A DNA stretch of 64,000 bases from Escherichia coli (lineage in GTDB: Bacteria; Pseudomonadota; Gammaproteobacteria; Enterobacterales; Enterobacteriaceae): the NCBI RefSeq assembly GCF_013315695.1, contig NZ_CP054353.1. One strand, 5' to 3'. The notes under the pieces were generated by a model. It did no database searches. It saw nothing but the letters and a program-made list of their open reading frames with translations, and was not told the DNA's origin. The translations under genes were made by a program, and so were the position numbers. Numbering within the stretch: the first letter of the stretch is position 1; the number at the start of each line of letters is the position of its first letter. Shown one piece after another: positions 23,522-29,536 of the stretch.

Positions 23522-23772
23522 TGAAAGAATACCGCTATTCCGGCCCGGCCAGCGGCGTCACGCTGTCGGACGGAACCGAAATCCTGCTCTGGCCGGGGAA
23601 GACGGTTTCCCTGCCGGAGGAGCATGACTACGTGAAGGTACTGGTGGCGCTGAAACATCTGACGCCGGTACCTGAAGAGACTAAACCCGCCGGCACACCG
23701 GCTGTGCAGTCACCAAAGCGCAGAAGCAGCAGTGACAGCGAAGTGAAAACGGAGGACACCCATGGCAGCTAA
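23518..23772 (+). CDS. Hypothetical protein (Mu gp38-position)
   Basis: 84 aa, coupled between neighbouring genes. Confidence 0.45.
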   Translation: MMKEYRYSGPASGVTLSDGTEILLWPGKTVSLPEEHDYVKVLVALKHLTPVPEETKPAGTPAVQSPKRRSSSDSEVKTEDTHGS

Positions 23773-25189
23773 CTATCTGCATGGTCCCGAAACCATTGAG
23801 GTGGAAAACGGTGCCCGCCCGGTTAAAACGGTGAAATCTGCCGTTATTGGCCTGATTGGTACCGCCCCGATGGGGGATGTCAATACGCTGGTACAGTGCC
23901 TGTCTGAGAAAGACGCAGCGGCATTTGGCAGCCAGTTCACCGGCTTTACCATTCCGCAGGCGCTGGATGCGATTTATGACCATGGTGCAGGTATCGTTCT
24001 GGTCATTAACGTCCTCGACCCGGCGAAACATAAAACGGCGATCGAGGATGAGGTGGTTACCTTTGACAAATCGACAGGGCAGGCCAGACTGGCGCATCCG
24101 GTTGTCGCTAATGTGGTGGTGAAAAACAGTGAAGGCAGCACCTCCCACACGGCGAACACGGACTACCGTGTTGATGCGCAGGCGGGTGTGCTCACGAACC
24201 TGGGCAAGGCTATTGAGGCCGGTGGCAGCGTGAAGGTGAGCTATGAGTACGCGGACCCGTCGAAGGTGACTGCGGCGGACATCATCGGCGGGGTGAACAG
24301 CGCCGGAAACCGAACCGGCATGAAGCTGCTTAACGACAGCTTCAACCTGTACGGCTATTTCGCCAAAATTCTGATTGCGCCGGTGTTCTGCACCCAGAAG
24401 AGTGTCGCAGTTGAGCTTATCGCCATGGCAGAGAAGCTGGGCGCGGTAACCTACATTGATGCGCCTGTCGGTACCACCTTTGCACAGGCTCTGGCAGGTC
24501 GTGGCCCGGAAGGCACCATCAACTTCAATACCAGCTCCGACCGCGTCCGTCTGTGCTATCCGCATGTGAAGGTATATGACCCGGTGACAAACACAGAGCG
24601 TCTGGAGCCGCTCAGCCAGCGTGCAGCAGGTCTGCGTGCCAGAGTCGATCTGGACAAGGGCTACTGGTGGTCATCCTCCAATCAGGAGATTCTGGGGATC
24701 ACTGGCGTGGAGCGCCAGCTGTCCGCGATGATTGATGACCCGCAGAGTGAGGTGAACCTGCTTAACGAACAGGGGATCACCACGGTATTCAGCAGTTACG
24801 GCAGCGGCCTTCGTCTGTGGGGTAACCGGACGGCAGCATGGCCAACGGTCACCCATATGCGTAACTTTGAGAACGTTCGCCGCACCGGTGATGTGATCAA
24901 CGAGTCCATTCGTTATTTCAGCCAGCAGTACATCGACATGCCGATTACTCAGGCGCTGATTGATGCACTGACGGAGTCGGTCAACGCCTACGGTCGCAAA
25001 ATGACTGGTGATGGTGCGGTACTGGGCTTCCGTTGCTGGTTTGATCCGGCCCGCAATCCGGAGACGGAGCTGGCCGCCGGGCACCTGTTGCTGAGCTACA
25101 AATATACGCCACCACCGCCGCTGGAGCGACTGACGTTTGAGACTGAGATCACCTCGGAATACCTGTTAACCCTGAAAGGGGGCAACTGA
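23762..25189 (+). CDS. Tail sheath protein (Mu L-like)
   Basis: 475 aa immediately followed by the tail tube gene. Confidence 0.8.
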   Translation: MAANYLHGPETIEVENGARPVKTVKSAVIGLIGTAPMGDVNTLVQCLSEKDAAAFGSQFTGFTIPQALDAIYDHGAGIVLVINVLDPAKHKTAIEDEVVTFDKSTGQARLAHPVVANVVVKNSEGSTSHTANTDYRVDAQAGVLTNLGKAIEAGGSVKVSYEYADPSKVTAADIIGGVNSAGNRTGMKLLNDSFNLYGYFAKILIAPVFCTQKSVAVELIAMAEKLGAVTYIDAPVGTTFAQALAGRGPEGTINFNTSSDRVRLCYPHVKVYDPVTNTERLEPLSQRAAGLRARVDLDKGYWWSSSNQEILGITGVERQLSAMIDDPQSEVNLLNEQGITTVFSSYGSGLRLWGNRTAAWPTVTHMRNFENVRRTGDVINESIRYFSQQYIDMPITQALIDALTESVNAYGRKMTGDGAVLGFRCWFDPARNPETELAAGHLLLSYKYTPPPPLERLTFETEITSEYLLTLKGGN

Positions 25190-25710
25190 TGTCAAAGATT
25201 GAGATAAACCGCATCACGAATGCCAACATCTATCTGGATGGTACTAACCTGCTGGGACGGGCTGAGGAAGTTAAACTCCCCGATGTCTCCATGATTATGC
25301 AGGAACACAAGGCGCTGGGGATGGTGGGTAAGGTGGAACTCCCGGCTGGTTTTGACAAACTGGAAGGCGAAATCAAATGGAACAGCTTTTACCGCGATGC
25401 GATGCTGTCTGCCGCGAACCCGTACAGGTCGCTGGCACTGCAGTGTCGTTCCAGCGTCCAGCGCTACAGCTCGCAGGGGCTGATTGACGAAATCCCGCTG
25501 GTCACCTTCCTGACGATTATGTTCAAGAAGAACCCGCTGGGGACGTTCAAACAGCACGAGAACGCCGAGTTCTCCAGTAGCTTCACCTGCACGTATATCA
25601 GACAGGTACTGGATGGTGAAGAGCTGCTGCAACTGGACTATCTGGCCAACATCTTCCGGGTCGGCGGTGTTGATCAACTGACTGACTACCGTATCAATAT
25701 CGGGGGCTGA
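25189..25710 (+). CDS. Tail tube protein (Mu M-like)
   Basis: 173 aa between sheath and chaperone/tape-measure genes. Confidence 0.75.
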   Translation: MSKIEINRITNANIYLDGTNLLGRAEEVKLPDVSMIMQEHKALGMVGKVELPAGFDKLEGEIKWNSFYRDAMLSAANPYRSLALQCRSSVQRYSSQGLIDEIPLVTFLTIMFKKNPLGTFKQHENAEFSSSFTCTYIRQVLDGEELLQLDYLANIFRVGGVDQLTDYRINIGG

Positions 25711-25712
25711 CG

Positions 25713-25994
25713 GTGAGTGTTGAACTGACGGATAAAGGAGGACGATGTGCGGCACTGGGCATGTCAAATGGTACGTGGTTTACCCTCCTTGATATTCCGG
25801 GGGTGGAAACCCTTTTTAATACCCGTAAAACCAATGACCCGATTGACTGCACACGTTCAAAGGCCCGCAAACTGGCGGATTTGATTGAAGCATGGGAGCC
25901 TCCCGACCACTGGTTCTCCGGCATCGGCAAATCTGAGGGAAAGACGCTTCTCATCGCTTTCCTGCGTAACTGCAAGGGGTTTCGCACTTGCTGA
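25713..25994 (+). CDS. Hypothetical protein, uncertain
   Basis: 93 aa track ORF between tube and chaperone genes; no motif. Confidence 0.3.
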   Translation: MSVELTDKGGRCAALGMSNGTWFTLLDIPGVETLFNTRKTNDPIDCTRSKARKLADLIEAWEPPDHWFSGIGKSEGKTLLIAFLRNCKGFRTC

Positions 25995-26091
25995 CATCAC
26001 AGGGGCTCCGGCCCCTTCTTCTTAATCTCCTTTAATATCCGTCACGCGCTTCTCCCGACATACTGCCCTGAACTTACACAGGAGCACAATC

Positions 26092-26427
26092 ATGTCACAG
26101 ACCCCATCCGATACTTTTAAATTGTCTTATCCCTTCACCACTGCTGCAGGCACCAGAATTGAGCTGGTTGAACTGAAACGCCTGACGGTAAAAGACCTGA
26201 AGCAGGTGCGCAAAATCAGCAAAAACCCGGCAGACTGGGACGAACCGCTGATTGCCCGCAGTACTGGTCTTCTCCCGGAAGATCTCGACAATATGGATCT
26301 GGCTGATTACCTGCAGTTACAGAAACGATTTCAGCTCATCACGGGGATGGGTGAGAGCAACCAGGGCGCTGACGCAGGCGCAGGGGCTGCTGGCGAGATG
26401 GTTCCGGTTTCAGCCGGGGGAGATTGA
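26092..26427 (+). CDS. Tail assembly chaperone
   Basis: 111 aa immediately upstream of the tape measure gene; overlapped by a second frame (26252..26509). Confidence 0.55.
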   Translation: MSQTPSDTFKLSYPFTTAAGTRIELVELKRLTVKDLKQVRKISKNPADWDEPLIARSTGLLPEDLDNMDLADYLQLQKRFQLITGMGESNQGADAGAGAAGEMVPVSAGGD

Positions 26428-26509
26428 TGCCCTCGATACTGACGATCTGGAGATGTGGCTGGAGCAGGCTGAAGAGCAAATAAAAAGCGAGTACGGCGAC
26501 AAATCATAG
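26252..26509 (+). CDS. Overlapping frame, possible frameshift extension of the tail assembly chaperone
   Basis: +1 frame relative to 26092..26427; its C-terminal part (..DALDTDDLEMWLEQAEEQIKSEYGD) looks protein-like; G5 run at 26416..26420 near the upstream stop. Confidence 0.4.
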   Translation: MPAVLVFSRKISTIWIWLITCSYRNDFSSSRGWVRATRALTQAQGLLARWFRFQPGEIDALDTDDLEMWLEQAEEQIKSEYGDKS

Positions 26510-26584
26510 TACAGACAGCCGCCAGTAGCGGCTGTTCTGCGTTATTCCCTCACGTCTTTTCACCTTCCCCGGAGGTTAACCACT

Positions 26585-29536
26585 ATGTCGGGACAGTTTT
26601 CAGTCGGCGTTGTTATCGGCGGGATGATTGGCAGCACATTCCGTTCTGCAATGAGCGGTACCCGCCGTGCGCTTGATTCCCTGAGCGATACCTCACGCCG
26701 CCTGCAGGAACGTCAGAACGCTTTAACCCGTGCAACAGAACGTTATGGTCAACTGGGTTCTTCCCGGATGCAGCATCTCAACAGCGAGCTGCTGCGGGTA
26801 AGCCGCACCATGGAGCAAATTGAGCGCCAGCAGCGCCGTCTGTCAGCGGCATCCGCTACCAGTGATGCGCTGAAAGCTAACCGCATGGCGCTGTATGGTC
26901 AGGGGATTGAAGCGTATGGCATGGCACAGACTGTTTATCATACGGTTTCCCCTGCCGTTCAGCAGTCCATGTCTTTTCAGGACAAAATGATTGATATGTC
27001 GATCACCGCAAAATATGACAATAAAACGCGGGATGCACTTGCCGGACAGATAAAAGGCTGGGCGCTTAAATACAATCAGTATCAGGATGAGCTGCAGGAG
27101 GCGGTGGGTTCACTCATCAGCGACAATATTGATAATGTGTCAGATATCGGTTTTCTGATGCCGGATATTGCCCGCGCGGCAACGGCAACACGCACGTCTG
27201 CTCAGGACTGGGCAAAAGTGGCCGCAGTCTGGCAAAACTCCCTGAAAGGTGCGGCCAGAGATTTTGGTGCCGTTCAGAATATTATGGCTTATGCCGGTGA
27301 CCAGGGGTCATTTGAAATCCCGGATCAGGTCAAGTGGATGCAGTCCCTGGCCCCAATGATGGCGGGTATTGCCAGTGGAAAAGAGGCTGTTGCTGAAATC
27401 GGGGCCAGTCTCCAGATAGCAAAAATCGGTGCAGGTTCCACCGACGAAGCAGCTAATAATTTTAAAAACTTTCTTACCAAAATTTTTGCCCGCGATACTC
27501 AGAAACAGTTTGCTGATCTGGGTATTGATTTGCAGGGATCTATTGCGAGTTATAAAGCTGCGGGGATCTCTCCGATTGAAGGGATGTTGAGTGTTATAGA
27601 ACGTTACCTCAATGCCAAAAGCCCCGAAGCGCTGGCCGGCTTCAAATCAGCCATGAAAATAAAGAATGATACGGCAAGAGATGAGGCACTTCAGGCTCTG
27701 GCGAAAAACTTTGGTCTGGGCGATATGTTCGCGGATATGCAGGTCATGGCATTTATCCGCCCGATGCTGGCCAACATGGACAGATATCGAGAGATCCGTG
27801 CCGGTGCTCTCAGGGCTGCGGATAACGATTTGCTTGCCAGTGCTTATGATCAGCGGCTGAAATCTCCCCTTGAAGCCACTAAAACACTTATGGTCAGCAG
27901 TCGCGATCTGGCAATTACGCTGGGCGATCAATTAGCTCCATCTTTTATTTCTTTGACTCAGGAACTGCTTCCACTCATTCAGGGGGCAAAACACTGGGTA
28001 GCGACTCACCCGCAATTTGTCAGTGGGGCTTTTAAGCTCATCAGTGCGCTCCTTGCGATTAAGATAGCGACTGTTGGTCTCAAACTGGGGCTGAATCTCC
28101 TTATTTCCCCCTTTGTAAGTGTCTGGAAAAATGCTGTTTTACTTCGGGCCAACTGGCTTCGTCTGTCGCTCGCACTGGGGCAAGGCGGTAAGCTCCGCTG
28201 GCTGGTGACCGGATTTAGCGCCGTCGCCAGAGGAGCCAGAACACTGAGTGGCGTGCTCTCCGGGGGGCTGGTTCGCGGAATTATGCTCGCCGGACGTGCT
28301 GTTCTCTGGATTGGACGTGCGCTGATGATGAATCCCATCGGTCTCGTTATCACCGCTGTCGCGGCAGCAGCTTACCTTATCTACCGCAACTGGGGGGCAG
28401 TCAGTGGCTGGTTTAAACAGCGCTGGGCAGACATTCAGGAAGCCTTTAACGGCGGCATTGTGGGAATTGGTAAGTTACTGATTAACTGGTCGCCGGCAGG
28501 CCTGCTCTATAAAGCCTTTGCGGCTGCGCTGAAATATTTCGGCGTTGCTCTGCCGGCAAAGTTCACCGACTTCGGTGGCCATCTTATCGACGGTCTGATT
28601 AACGGTATCAAAAACAAATGGGGGTCGCTCAAATCCAGTGTAACCGGAATGGGTGACAGCATCAGTAGCTGGTTTAAACAGTGCTGGGCTGACATTCAGG
28701 AAGCCTTTAACGGCGGTATCGCGGGAACTGGTAAGCTGCTGATTAACTGGTCGCCGGCAGGTCTGCTCTATAAAGCCTTTGCAGCTGCGCTGAAATATCT
28801 TGGTGTTGATCTGCCGGCAAAGTTCACCGACTTCGGTGGCCATCTTGTCGACGGTCTGATTAACGGTATCAAAAACAAATGGGAGTCGCTCAAATCCAGT
28901 GTAACCGGAATGGGTGACAGCATCAGTGGCTGGTTCAGCGAAAAGCTGGGCATTCATTCGCCGAGCCGCGTGTTTATGGGCTTTGGTGACAATATCGCGC
29001 AGGGGGCCGCCATTGGCCTGCAGCGGACCACTCCGCTTGCAGCTCTGGCCGGGCAGCGAATGGCCAGTGAACTGCTCCCCAAAATGCCCGTGAGCATTCA
29101 GGGGCCAGAAATACGGGATAACACTTCAGGTGTTCGCTTCAGTATGCCGTTGCCCGATATCAATGGGTTTATGTCGTCTGCTAAAAATGCGATCGGAGCC
29201 GTAATCAATAGTTTGTCTTCCATGCCCGCTATCCCGCTCTCCACCCGGGCATCGATTTTACCAGGGCAACGTCTGGCAAATGAGATGACACCGGATGTTC
29301 CCCGTATCCCCTCGCCTGAAATCATGGCTGCCGGATATTCAGGCCGTGGTGCAGCTGCAACCGGCGGTGGAACGTCTGGTGGTATCCAGGTCAGCTTTAA
29401 TCCTCAGTTTTTCCTCAATGGCAGGGAAACCACAGCGCCTGCAGGACTGACTGGTGCCCTGAATATGAGTCTGCATGAGCTGGAAAAAATGCTGGAGCGT
29501 CTGCTGGCTCAGAAACAACGTAAGGAGTACCGCTGA
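26585..29536 (+). CDS. Tail tape measure protein
   Basis: 983 aa, largest tail ORF, after the chaperone genes; contains internal tandem duplication and hydrophobic segments. Confidence 0.85.
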   Translation: MSGQFSVGVVIGGMIGSTFRSAMSGTRRALDSLSDTSRRLQERQNALTRATERYGQLGSSRMQHLNSELLRVSRTMEQIERQQRRLSAASATSDALKANRMALYGQGIEAYGMAQTVYHTVSPAVQQSMSFQDKMIDMSITAKYDNKTRDALAGQIKGWALKYNQYQDELQEAVGSLISDNIDNVSDIGFLMPDIARAATATRTSAQDWAKVAAVWQNSLKGAARDFGAVQNIMAYAGDQGSFEIPDQVKWMQSLAPMMAGIASGKEAVAEIGASLQIAKIGAGSTDEAANNFKNFLTKIFARDTQKQFADLGIDLQGSIASYKAAGISPIEGMLSVIERYLNAKSPEALAGFKSAMKIKNDTARDEALQALAKNFGLGDMFADMQVMAFIRPMLANMDRYREIRAGALRAADNDLLASAYDQRLKSPLEATKTLMVSSRDLAITLGDQLAPSFISLTQELLPLIQGAKHWVATHPQFVSGAFKLISALLAIKIATVGLKLGLNLLISPFVSVWKNAVLLRANWLRLSLALGQGGKLRWLVTGFSAVARGARTLSGVLSGGLVRGIMLAGRAVLWIGRALMMNPIGLVITAVAAAAYLIYRNWGAVSGWFKQRWADIQEAFNGGIVGIGKLLINWSPAGLLYKAFAAALKYFGVALPAKFTDFGGHLIDGLINGIKNKWGSLKSSVTGMGDSISSWFKQCWADIQEAFNGGIAGTGKLLINWSPAGLLYKAFAAALKYLGVDLPAKFTDFGGHLVDGLINGIKNKWESLKSSVTGMGDSISGWFSEKLGIHSPSRVFMGFGDNIAQGAAIGLQRTTPLAALAGQRMASELLPKMPVSIQGPEIRDNTSGVRFSMPLPDINGFMSSAKNAIGAVINSLSSMPAIPLSTRASILPGQRLANEMTPDVPRIPSPEIMAAGYSGRGAAATGGGTSGGIQVSFNPQFFLNGRETTAPAGLTGALNMSLHELEKMLERLLAQKQRKEYR
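28411..28932 (+). repeat. Two tandem copies of a 261-bp (87 aa) unit inside the tape measure gene
   Basis: GWFKQRWADIQEAFNGGI..KSSVTGMGDSIS repeated as SWFKQCWADIQEAFNGGI..KSSVTGMGDSIS; unit starts at 28411 and 28672, next at 28933. Confidence 0.8.

Follow-up and report, generated by a model that had tools for sequence, protein, structure and literature searches.

The window, by which we mean the whole stretch of 64,000 nucleotides that was analysed, represents an E. coli prophage of the BcepMu-like type. Between positions 25189 and 26700 it is 99.8% identical to Escherichia phage PhiKM (Bcepmuvirus), and the 600 nt surrounding the site discussed here are present in 640 of 5426 complete E. 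coli genomes. The tail genes are ordered as sheath (23762-25189), tube (25189-25710), tail assembly chaperone, tape measure, gpU-like, X and gpD-like, with a small DUF7739-like ORF (25713-25994) between the tube and chaperone genes. The chaperone gene (26092..26427, plus strand), which carries the RefSeq name 'phage tail assembly protein', encodes 111 amino acids in frame 0, from an ATG at 26092 to a TGA at 26425-26427, and a Shine-Dalgarno motif AGGAG (26080..26084, plus strand) can be read from the sequence 7 nt before the ATG. Residues 8-81 of its product match the Pfam family PF10109, Phage_TAC_7 (E 5.5e-21), described as 'Phage tail assembly chaperone proteins, E, or 41 or 14', and this domain occupies the N-terminus in all 20 family representatives (20/20). 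The gene at 26092-26427 is thus named here as a chaperone gene of the P2 gpE / Mu gp41 type. Its presumed binding partner, the tape measure protein, is encoded at 26585..29536 on the plus strand (Pfam PF10145, E 2e-20).

Several other features of this region were recorded. A GC-rich, terminator-like hairpin at 26001-26016 (AGGGGCTCCGGCCCCT followed by TCTTCTT) is situated between the DUF7739-like ORF and the chaperone gene, inside what is presumed to be a single late operon. A second hairpin of 7 bp, CAGCCGC-CAGTA-GCGGCTG at 26516-26534, has stems that are identical and loops that vary in four enteric relatives, and no proper T-run after it; it is located ahead of the tape measure gene, directly past the stop codon of the overlapping ORF described below. 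The tape measure gene itself contains a 261-nt tandem duplication at 28401-28935 (2.0 copies, 93% identical), corresponding to an in-frame repeat of 87 amino acids, and the PhiKM record has a sequencing gap at this duplication. The tape measure genes of relatives are shorter, 2466 nt vs 2952 nt in the window, and the duplication could underlie variation in tail length among otherwise near-identical prophages.

A preliminary sequence-only reading of this DNA had drawn attention to an ORF at 26252-26509 that overlaps the chaperone gene in the +1 frame and whose end resembles genuine protein sequence. Coordinates and frame arithmetic agree with this placement (26092 mod 3 = 1; 26252 mod 3 = 2), the overlap amounts to 59 codons, and the reading's remark that the geometry is not that of a simple -1 shift holds, the extension lying in the +1 frame. 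The part of interest (26333..26509, plus strand) consists of 58 codons and the stop codon TAG at 26507-26509 and encodes SSSRGWVRATRALTQAQGLLARWFRFQPGEIDALDTDDLEMWLEQAEEQIKSEYGDKS. The same reading had proposed an alignment with related phages as a check on the overlap. For this comparison 142 distinct homologous loci of 45-69% GC were collected from two IMG/VR scans and from phage records, covering relatives from Enterobacteria, Burkholderia, Pseudomonas and Ralstonia. In 140 of the 142, an E'-like ORF without a conserved start codon was found in the +1 frame, as it also was in the more distant isolate phage Bise. The conservation of the +1-frame overlap, as judged from these alignments, is far greater than chance would give. 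The exception is one metagenome contig (IMGVR_UViG_3300002920_000058), retrieved twice as L080 and L113, in which chaperone and E' are fused in a single frame of 125 amino acids (L080 1423-1576). This single-frame gene is either a natural constitutive fusion or an assembly indel, and it cannot serve to locate a shift site.

The substitution pattern in the overlap follows the +1 frame. Five enteric sequences keep the +1 peptide A-R-W-F-R-F with an Arg codon that is AGA, AGG, CGG or CGC, and the +1 peptide LLARWFRFQPGEID is kept between the window and four enteric relatives through the changes AGA->AGG, TTC->TTT and CGG->AGG/AGA, which are synonymous in +1 and alter frame 0 to P, Q or even a stop. 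The +1 Gly codon at 26384-26386 appears as GGG, GGC, GGT or GGA across the enteric sequences, and the frame-0 residues opposite conserved +1 residues vary (P/Q/stop; A/P/S/T). In a locus that is 98% identical to the window (L030), CAG has become TAG at frame-0 codon 91 (window 26362-26364), a change that is nonsense in frame 0, where it cuts off the tail, and synonymous (ACC->ACT) in +1. In the predicted fusion, residues Trp86 and Leu93 are at least 90% conserved; this +1 Trp is found two to five codons past the last Phe codon of the chaperone domain. Judged by these substitutions, the +1 ORF is a real coding sequence and both frames are coding, so that the claim of genuine protein sequence in the second frame has been borne out by its retention in 140 of 142 relatives, by its synonymous changes and by its homology to P2 gpE'.

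This homology is found at the C-terminal side. The segment at 26390..26488 (plus strand, +1 frame; LARWFRFQPGEIDALDTDDLEMWLEQAEEQIKS) would form a GpE'-like domain, with a weak match to PF06528 (Phage_P2_GpE) at E 0.022 for the ORF alone and 0.0015 for the fusion, both below the gathering score. PF06528 was matched in 7 of 20 divergent family representatives (best E 3.6e-5), and when a profile of fusions joined at Phe80 was compared with P2 gpE+E' by hhalign, both halves were aligned (E 3.4e-5, probability 72%). Based on the Pfam and hhalign matches, the second ORF can be taken as the counterpart of P2 E' and, at the level of these profiles, is a homologue of the P2 gpE' extension. NCBIfam gave no match for either frame or for the fusions.

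A second coding frame might be expressed without any frameshift, if the +1 ORF were translated alone from an internal start such as GTG 26351 and yielded a small 'GpE family phage tail protein'. That is the name which NCBI records give to products of 46-52 amino acids from this ORF (P0006, P0012), and BcepMu gp42 and phiE255 gp16 are annotated as separate genes; moreover, GTG 26351 in the window is preceded by GGGGA. This start codon is not conserved, however, being GCA in two of the relatives (L003 and L005), and in 52 of the 140 loci the +1 ORF lacks any ATG, GTG or TTG ahead of the conserved Trp. At least 14 lineages have a +1 frame that is open from just 8 nt ahead of the TTT of the last conserved Phe codon, with no start codon, and conservation of the +1 frame begins immediately after this Phe. 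The homologous P2 E' is furthermore made solely as an E+E' fusion (AF063097; PMC3931495). Translation from an independent start is therefore regarded as unlikely.

If the two frames are joined by a ribosomal frameshift, the shift has to occur, in each lineage, past the last stop codon of the +1 frame and ahead of the one that ends frame 0. The ORF opening at 8 nt before TTT sets the upstream limit; the downstream limit comes from at least 20 lineages whose frame 0 stops 18-27 nt past TTT. On these stop codons, a shift common to the lineages must fall in an interval of about 30 nt surrounding the codon for the last conserved Phe in the chaperone domain (26329-26331). Between the bounds, from TTT-8 to TTT+20, the only shared element that is slippery in the +1 direction is UUU_C, formed in the window by the Phe80 codon TTT and the C of the following CAG (26329..26332, plus strand). 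All 137 site codons that encode Phe are TTT; TTC does not occur, not even in loci of 60-69% GC. Counted over all 142 loci, the codon ends in T 137 times, in G 5 times and in C not once, and in-phase UUU followed by a pyrimidine is present in 137 of 142 relatives. The base after the site codon is C in 142 of 142, though the next residue is Q, R or L. In the same genes the third bases of Asp codons (GAY) are about 50:50 C/T, and the background share of TTT among Phe codons in the high-GC loci is 0.26-0.28. After clustering below 70% amino-acid identity, the 22 clusters comprise 21 with TTT, 1 with TTG and 0 with TTC. These counts demonstrate, within the alignment, conservation of TTT_C at the nucleotide level. 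The single TTTC in the chaperone gene of phage Bise is in phase at the homologous Phe.

The codon phase of the variation changes at the same place. Within 0-30 nt past TTT, the codon position with the most variation ceases to be the third base of frame 0 and becomes that of the +1 frame; at +45 to +104 hardly any variation is left in the frame-0 third positions. This switch was seen independently in an enteric-type set of 56 sequences and in a high-GC set of 54 sequences. Nearly all enteric loci, and a Ralstonia phage (L010), have the rare Arg codon CGA directly ahead of UUU (26326-26328), in a stretch where nearby third positions vary; CGA is possibly part of the frameshift context.

The TTT_C element alone is not unique, since 34 of 142 chaperone genes contain further in-phase TTT_C sites upstream. 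In the enteric clade taken alone, the stop-codon bounds are loose (-77 or -26 to +75 or +96), and the precise site in the window therefore rests on homology across the family. These enteric bounds permit any position from about 26300 to 26404, and a +1 shift elsewhere in the enteric lineage, at 26333-26347 (e.g. at GGG_A in ACG GGG AUG, 26344-26347) or spread over several weak sites, was considered for this reason. The GGG at 26344-26346 is nearly invariant in the enteric loci, and the lineages with TTG CGG described below indicate that the family can manage without UUU. Yet this Gly codon is AGC in one locus (L009) and GGA in two others (L072 and L073), and the G-run is absent from the high-GC relatives, with which TTT_C is shared. 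In addition, the +1 residues between Phe80 and Trp86 follow a conserved pattern, [SR]-[SKT]-x-x-[GD]-W. A shift at 26333-26347, or over several weak sites, is accordingly judged improbable, and UUU_C remains the preferred position. A different G-run, GGG_G at 26383-26386, was rejected as a +1 site: relatives have GGGC there, and coding in the +1 frame has begun before this run is reached.

The TTG CGG lineages are four divergent relatives (L159, L164, L168 and L173) in which TTG CGG GAA replaces TTT CGG GAA (at about 1208-1223 of each locus). Their +1 E' ORF is intact despite the TTG. They have no codon that is obviously slippery in the +1 direction, with CGG_G as the sole candidate, and these four must shift differently or poorly. 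With respect to stimulators, the fold of the RNA from 26329-26440 is no better than that of shuffled sequences (z -0.39), and RNAalifold found no covariation downstream of the site in four enteric sequences. A Shine-Dalgarno-like stimulator at a fixed distance upstream was likewise absent, positions -1 to -6 being variable across the family; GAGGTG occurs upstream in some Pseudomonas-type loci and is not shared family-wide. The frame-0 codon following UUU in the window, CAG, is not rare in E. coli. Finally, hhalign sets the Phe of the P2 slip site opposite the +1 Trp86 and not Phe80; in this profile alignment the P2 slip-site Phe is within about 4 residues of the site proposed here.

The sequence-only reading had also singled out a run of five G residues just before the upstream stop. 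This run is present (26416..26420, plus strand), two codons ahead of the frame-0 stop TGA at 26425-26427 and about 87 bases downstream of UUU_C; it is lineage-specific and is a by-product of the +1 codons CCG GGG GAG (Pro-Gly-Glu). If ribosomes shifted here (GGG GGA, 26416-26421), either by -2 as in Mu or by +1 on GGG_G, the product would read ...VSAG(G)EIDALD.... The run stands in the register GGG_GGA_G, and the verified -2 site of Mu is likewise a G5 near the frame-0 stop. Ralstonia phage L010 and the TTG CGG relative L159 have GGG_GGA_G elsewhere in their overlaps, and databases hold 138-aa variants fused exactly at this run, with G4 replacing G5 (P0018, P0019). Against this, the run lies inside the conserved E' domain and can be reached in frame 0 in only 28 of 140 relatives. 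In 19 of 65 enteric-type loci a TAG terminates frame 0 before the run, and in BcepMu frame 0 ends earlier still. Close relatives carry TGGGG or AGGGG at this position (CCT/CCA Pro, synonymous in +1), GGGTG or GAGTG, and some carry AGT. The codon phase has switched to +1 about 60-85 nt before the run is reached, and a product fused here would lose the conserved LLARWFRFQP, the first third of the E' domain; in the database variant P0018 the PF06528 match is indeed gone. The G4 variants are indistinguishable from homopolymer sequencing errors; P0010 and P0011 have similar 1-nt deletions in two further runs. The G5 run is consequently judged highly improbable as the place of the shift. Of the non-canonical recoding, +1 or -2, that had been suggested for this gene, the +1 frame has stood, a Mu-like -2 event at G5 has not, and the data point to UUU_C at 26329-26332.

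The 138-aa database entries were also discarded as a means of locating the site, as they carry 1-nt homopolymer deletions at three runs and are probably sequencing errors. The runs affected in P0010, P0011, P0018 and P0019 are a G3 at about 26364, an A5 in the O68-type allele and the G5 at 26416, and some of the 138-aa fusions occur on 5-12 contigs.

Based on the above, we propose that a +1 slip of tRNA-Phe from UUU to UUC at 26329-26332 probably generates, in addition to the chaperone of 111 amino acids, an E+E'-like fusion of 138. What we infer is that the event is a +1 slip of the ribosome at UUU_C, how efficient it is and what the two products do. Most ribosomes would remain in frame 0 throughout and synthesize the 111-aa protein, presumably the short and major product. 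With the Phe80 codon UUU (26329-26331) in the P site, a minority of the ribosomes would allow tRNA-Phe (anticodon GAA) to slip by +1 onto UUC (26330-26332), after which translation would resume at AGC at 26333 and follow the +1 frame to the TAG at 26507-26509. A -2 event is impossible at UUU_C because no re-pairing can take place two bases back. The long product of 138 amino acids would then consist of chaperone residues 1-80 followed by SSSRGW...YGDKS, that is, an N-terminal chaperone domain linked to a GpE'-like helical domain at the C-terminus. If the two forms act as in lambda G/GT and P2 E/E+E', the short one might coat the tape measure protein; the rare long one might also bring in the tube protein and thereby allow the tail to polymerise to its proper length.

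An AlphaFold2 model of the fusion (pLDDT 82.7, pTM 0.70) has Phe80 where the final helix of the chaperone domain ends, followed by a short, less confident linker and then by the three E' helices. Among predicted viral structures, the best match was to a 137-aa 'tape measure chaperone' from Burkholderia phage Mica (E 1.9e-5). Among solved structures, neither hmmsearch of PDB sequences nor a Foldseek search of the PDB with the AlphaFold2 model gave a meaningful match.

Across the family, it seems rather likely that the BcepMu-like contractile-tail phages and prophages, a large and widespread family in Enterobacteria, Burkholderia, Pseudomonas and Ralstonia, rely on a deeply conserved +1 shift at a bare UUU_C without apparent stimulator. 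If true, this would be a natural, selected use of a UUU-pyrimidine site of the kind regarded as 'error-prone'. It would also mean that homologous chaperone genes have switched the direction of the shift at what is essentially one domain boundary, with -1 in P2, +1 in the present family and -2 in Mu, and hence that the direction of recoding can change between homologues with the two-product logic kept. Tail chaperone genes are a textbook example of recoding by frameshift; to our knowledge, nearly all the characterised examples are -1 shifts, with Mu at -2. A family-wide UUU_C site would moreover offer a simple and easily mutated natural model for bacterial +1 slippage, and tail assembly would be predicted to depend on tRNA-Phe and on its modification state. 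Tail chaperone genes of tailed phages are described as using -1, -2 or +1 frameshifts (PMC5009743).

The proposal would also correct the annotation of a protein that is probably essential for tail assembly. In the E. coli element and its relatives the public annotation carries the short product alone, and a fusion at the Phe codon is unannotated in the records examined for BcepMu, phiE255, the vB_E427-type phages, Komp_PAO1_1, Bise, PhiKM, KP12 and the RefSeq E. coli entries. The fusion is thus missing from the inspected records of the clade, and the prophage is found in about 12% of complete E. coli genomes; BcepMu-like phages with the same gap in their annotation are being considered for Burkholderia and Pseudomonas work. 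Literature searches found no earlier account of this +1 site in BcepMu-like phages, which by itself does not prove that none exists.

When set beside the known systems, the locus has the features by which lambda G/GT is recognized, i.e. a position between the tube and tape measure genes, a conserved second ORF without a start and a slippery sequence in the overlap, here UUU_C and not a canonical -1 heptamer. Like the abundant gpG and the rare frameshifted gpGT of lambda, encoded just upstream of the tape measure gene (PMC5009743), the window would combine an abundant short chaperone with a rare long form. The two have no sequence similarity, and lambda differs in shifting by -1 at G_GGA_AAG and in having a non-contractile tail.

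The resemblance to P2 gpE/gpE+E' extends to the proteins themselves, in which an N-terminal PF10109 domain is followed by an E'-type C-terminal extension (PF06528, matched in the window below the gathering score). In both, the chaperone gene is located between the tube (FII in P2) and tape measure (T) genes and the second ORF has no start of its own, and the slip would take place on a codon for Phe where the chaperone domain ends, at positions within about 4 residues of each other. P2 E' is made as an E+E' frameshift fusion (PMC3931495; annotated in AF063097). The P2 extension, however, lies in the -1 frame and is reached through the canonical heptamer T_TTT_TTG (T6G), whereas the window has its extension in +1, at UUU_C; a -1 frameshift on T6G or T7G is a feature that the window lacks, with its +1 frame and only three T residues. 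The direction and mechanism of slippage would thus differ from those of P2, because the extension is in +1 and only UUU_C is present. In a distant homologue, from Pasteurella phage AFS-2018a (L012, 1168-1700), the E'-like extension is in the -1 frame, as in P2, and it is on this basis that the frameshift direction is seen to differ among homologous chaperone genes.

Mu gp41/FS-gp41 shares with the window the Pfam family ('E, or 41 or 14'), an extension frame that corresponds to +1 or -2, and a place in the tail module of contractile-tailed, Mu-like transposable phages. The -2 frameshift of Mu was reportedly described by Xu, Hendrix & Duda in 2004 within the lambda G/GT paradigm. It takes place on CGG_GGG_CGA in an overlap of 12 codons, in contrast to the 59 codons of the window, and is annotated as verified in a note to the Mu GenBank record. 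A conserved G-run that could act as a -2 site is absent from the window, where the conserved element is UUU_C, and the structural similarity to Mu FS-gp41 is weak (BFVD E 0.19).

The orthologous locus of BcepMu, gp41/gp42/gp43 (AY539836), has the same TTT_C and the same +1 E' ORF. Unlike the reading presented here, its record treats gp42 as an independent gene with slippage from gp42 to gp43, and proposes none from gp41 to gp42 at the Phe codon. In BcepMu (L013, 5859-6364), gp43 is situated in a gap of roughly 275 nt that precedes the tape measure gene; the corresponding gap in the E. coli window is 75 nt, with no gp43 equivalent.

As to the slippery sequence, many relatives carry the dicodon UUU CGG at the site. 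UUU-pyrimidine sites are said to be prone to +1 shifts in E. coli, in work ascribed to Schwartz & Curran in 1997 (NAR 25:2005) and to Fu & Parker in 1994, and UUU CGG is reportedly one of the dicodons studied there; the 1997 paper is cited by PMC3789692. At such sites, as would be the case in the window, the P-site tRNA re-pairs one base in the 3' direction, and the move from UUU to UUC improves pairing with the anticodon GAA; they differ from the window in that they have been described as error sites or in engineered contexts. The programmed +1 frameshift of prfB needs a Shine-Dalgarno-like sequence about 3 nt upstream and a stop (or hungry) codon in the A site. The window differs from prfB in both respects, as its upstream sequence CAGAAACGA contains no Shine-Dalgarno motif and its A-site codon is CAG, not a stop. 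The putative +1 shift at UUU_C would be a new form of the known tail-chaperone frameshift, next to lambda G/GT, the -1 shift of P2 and the -2 shift of Mu.
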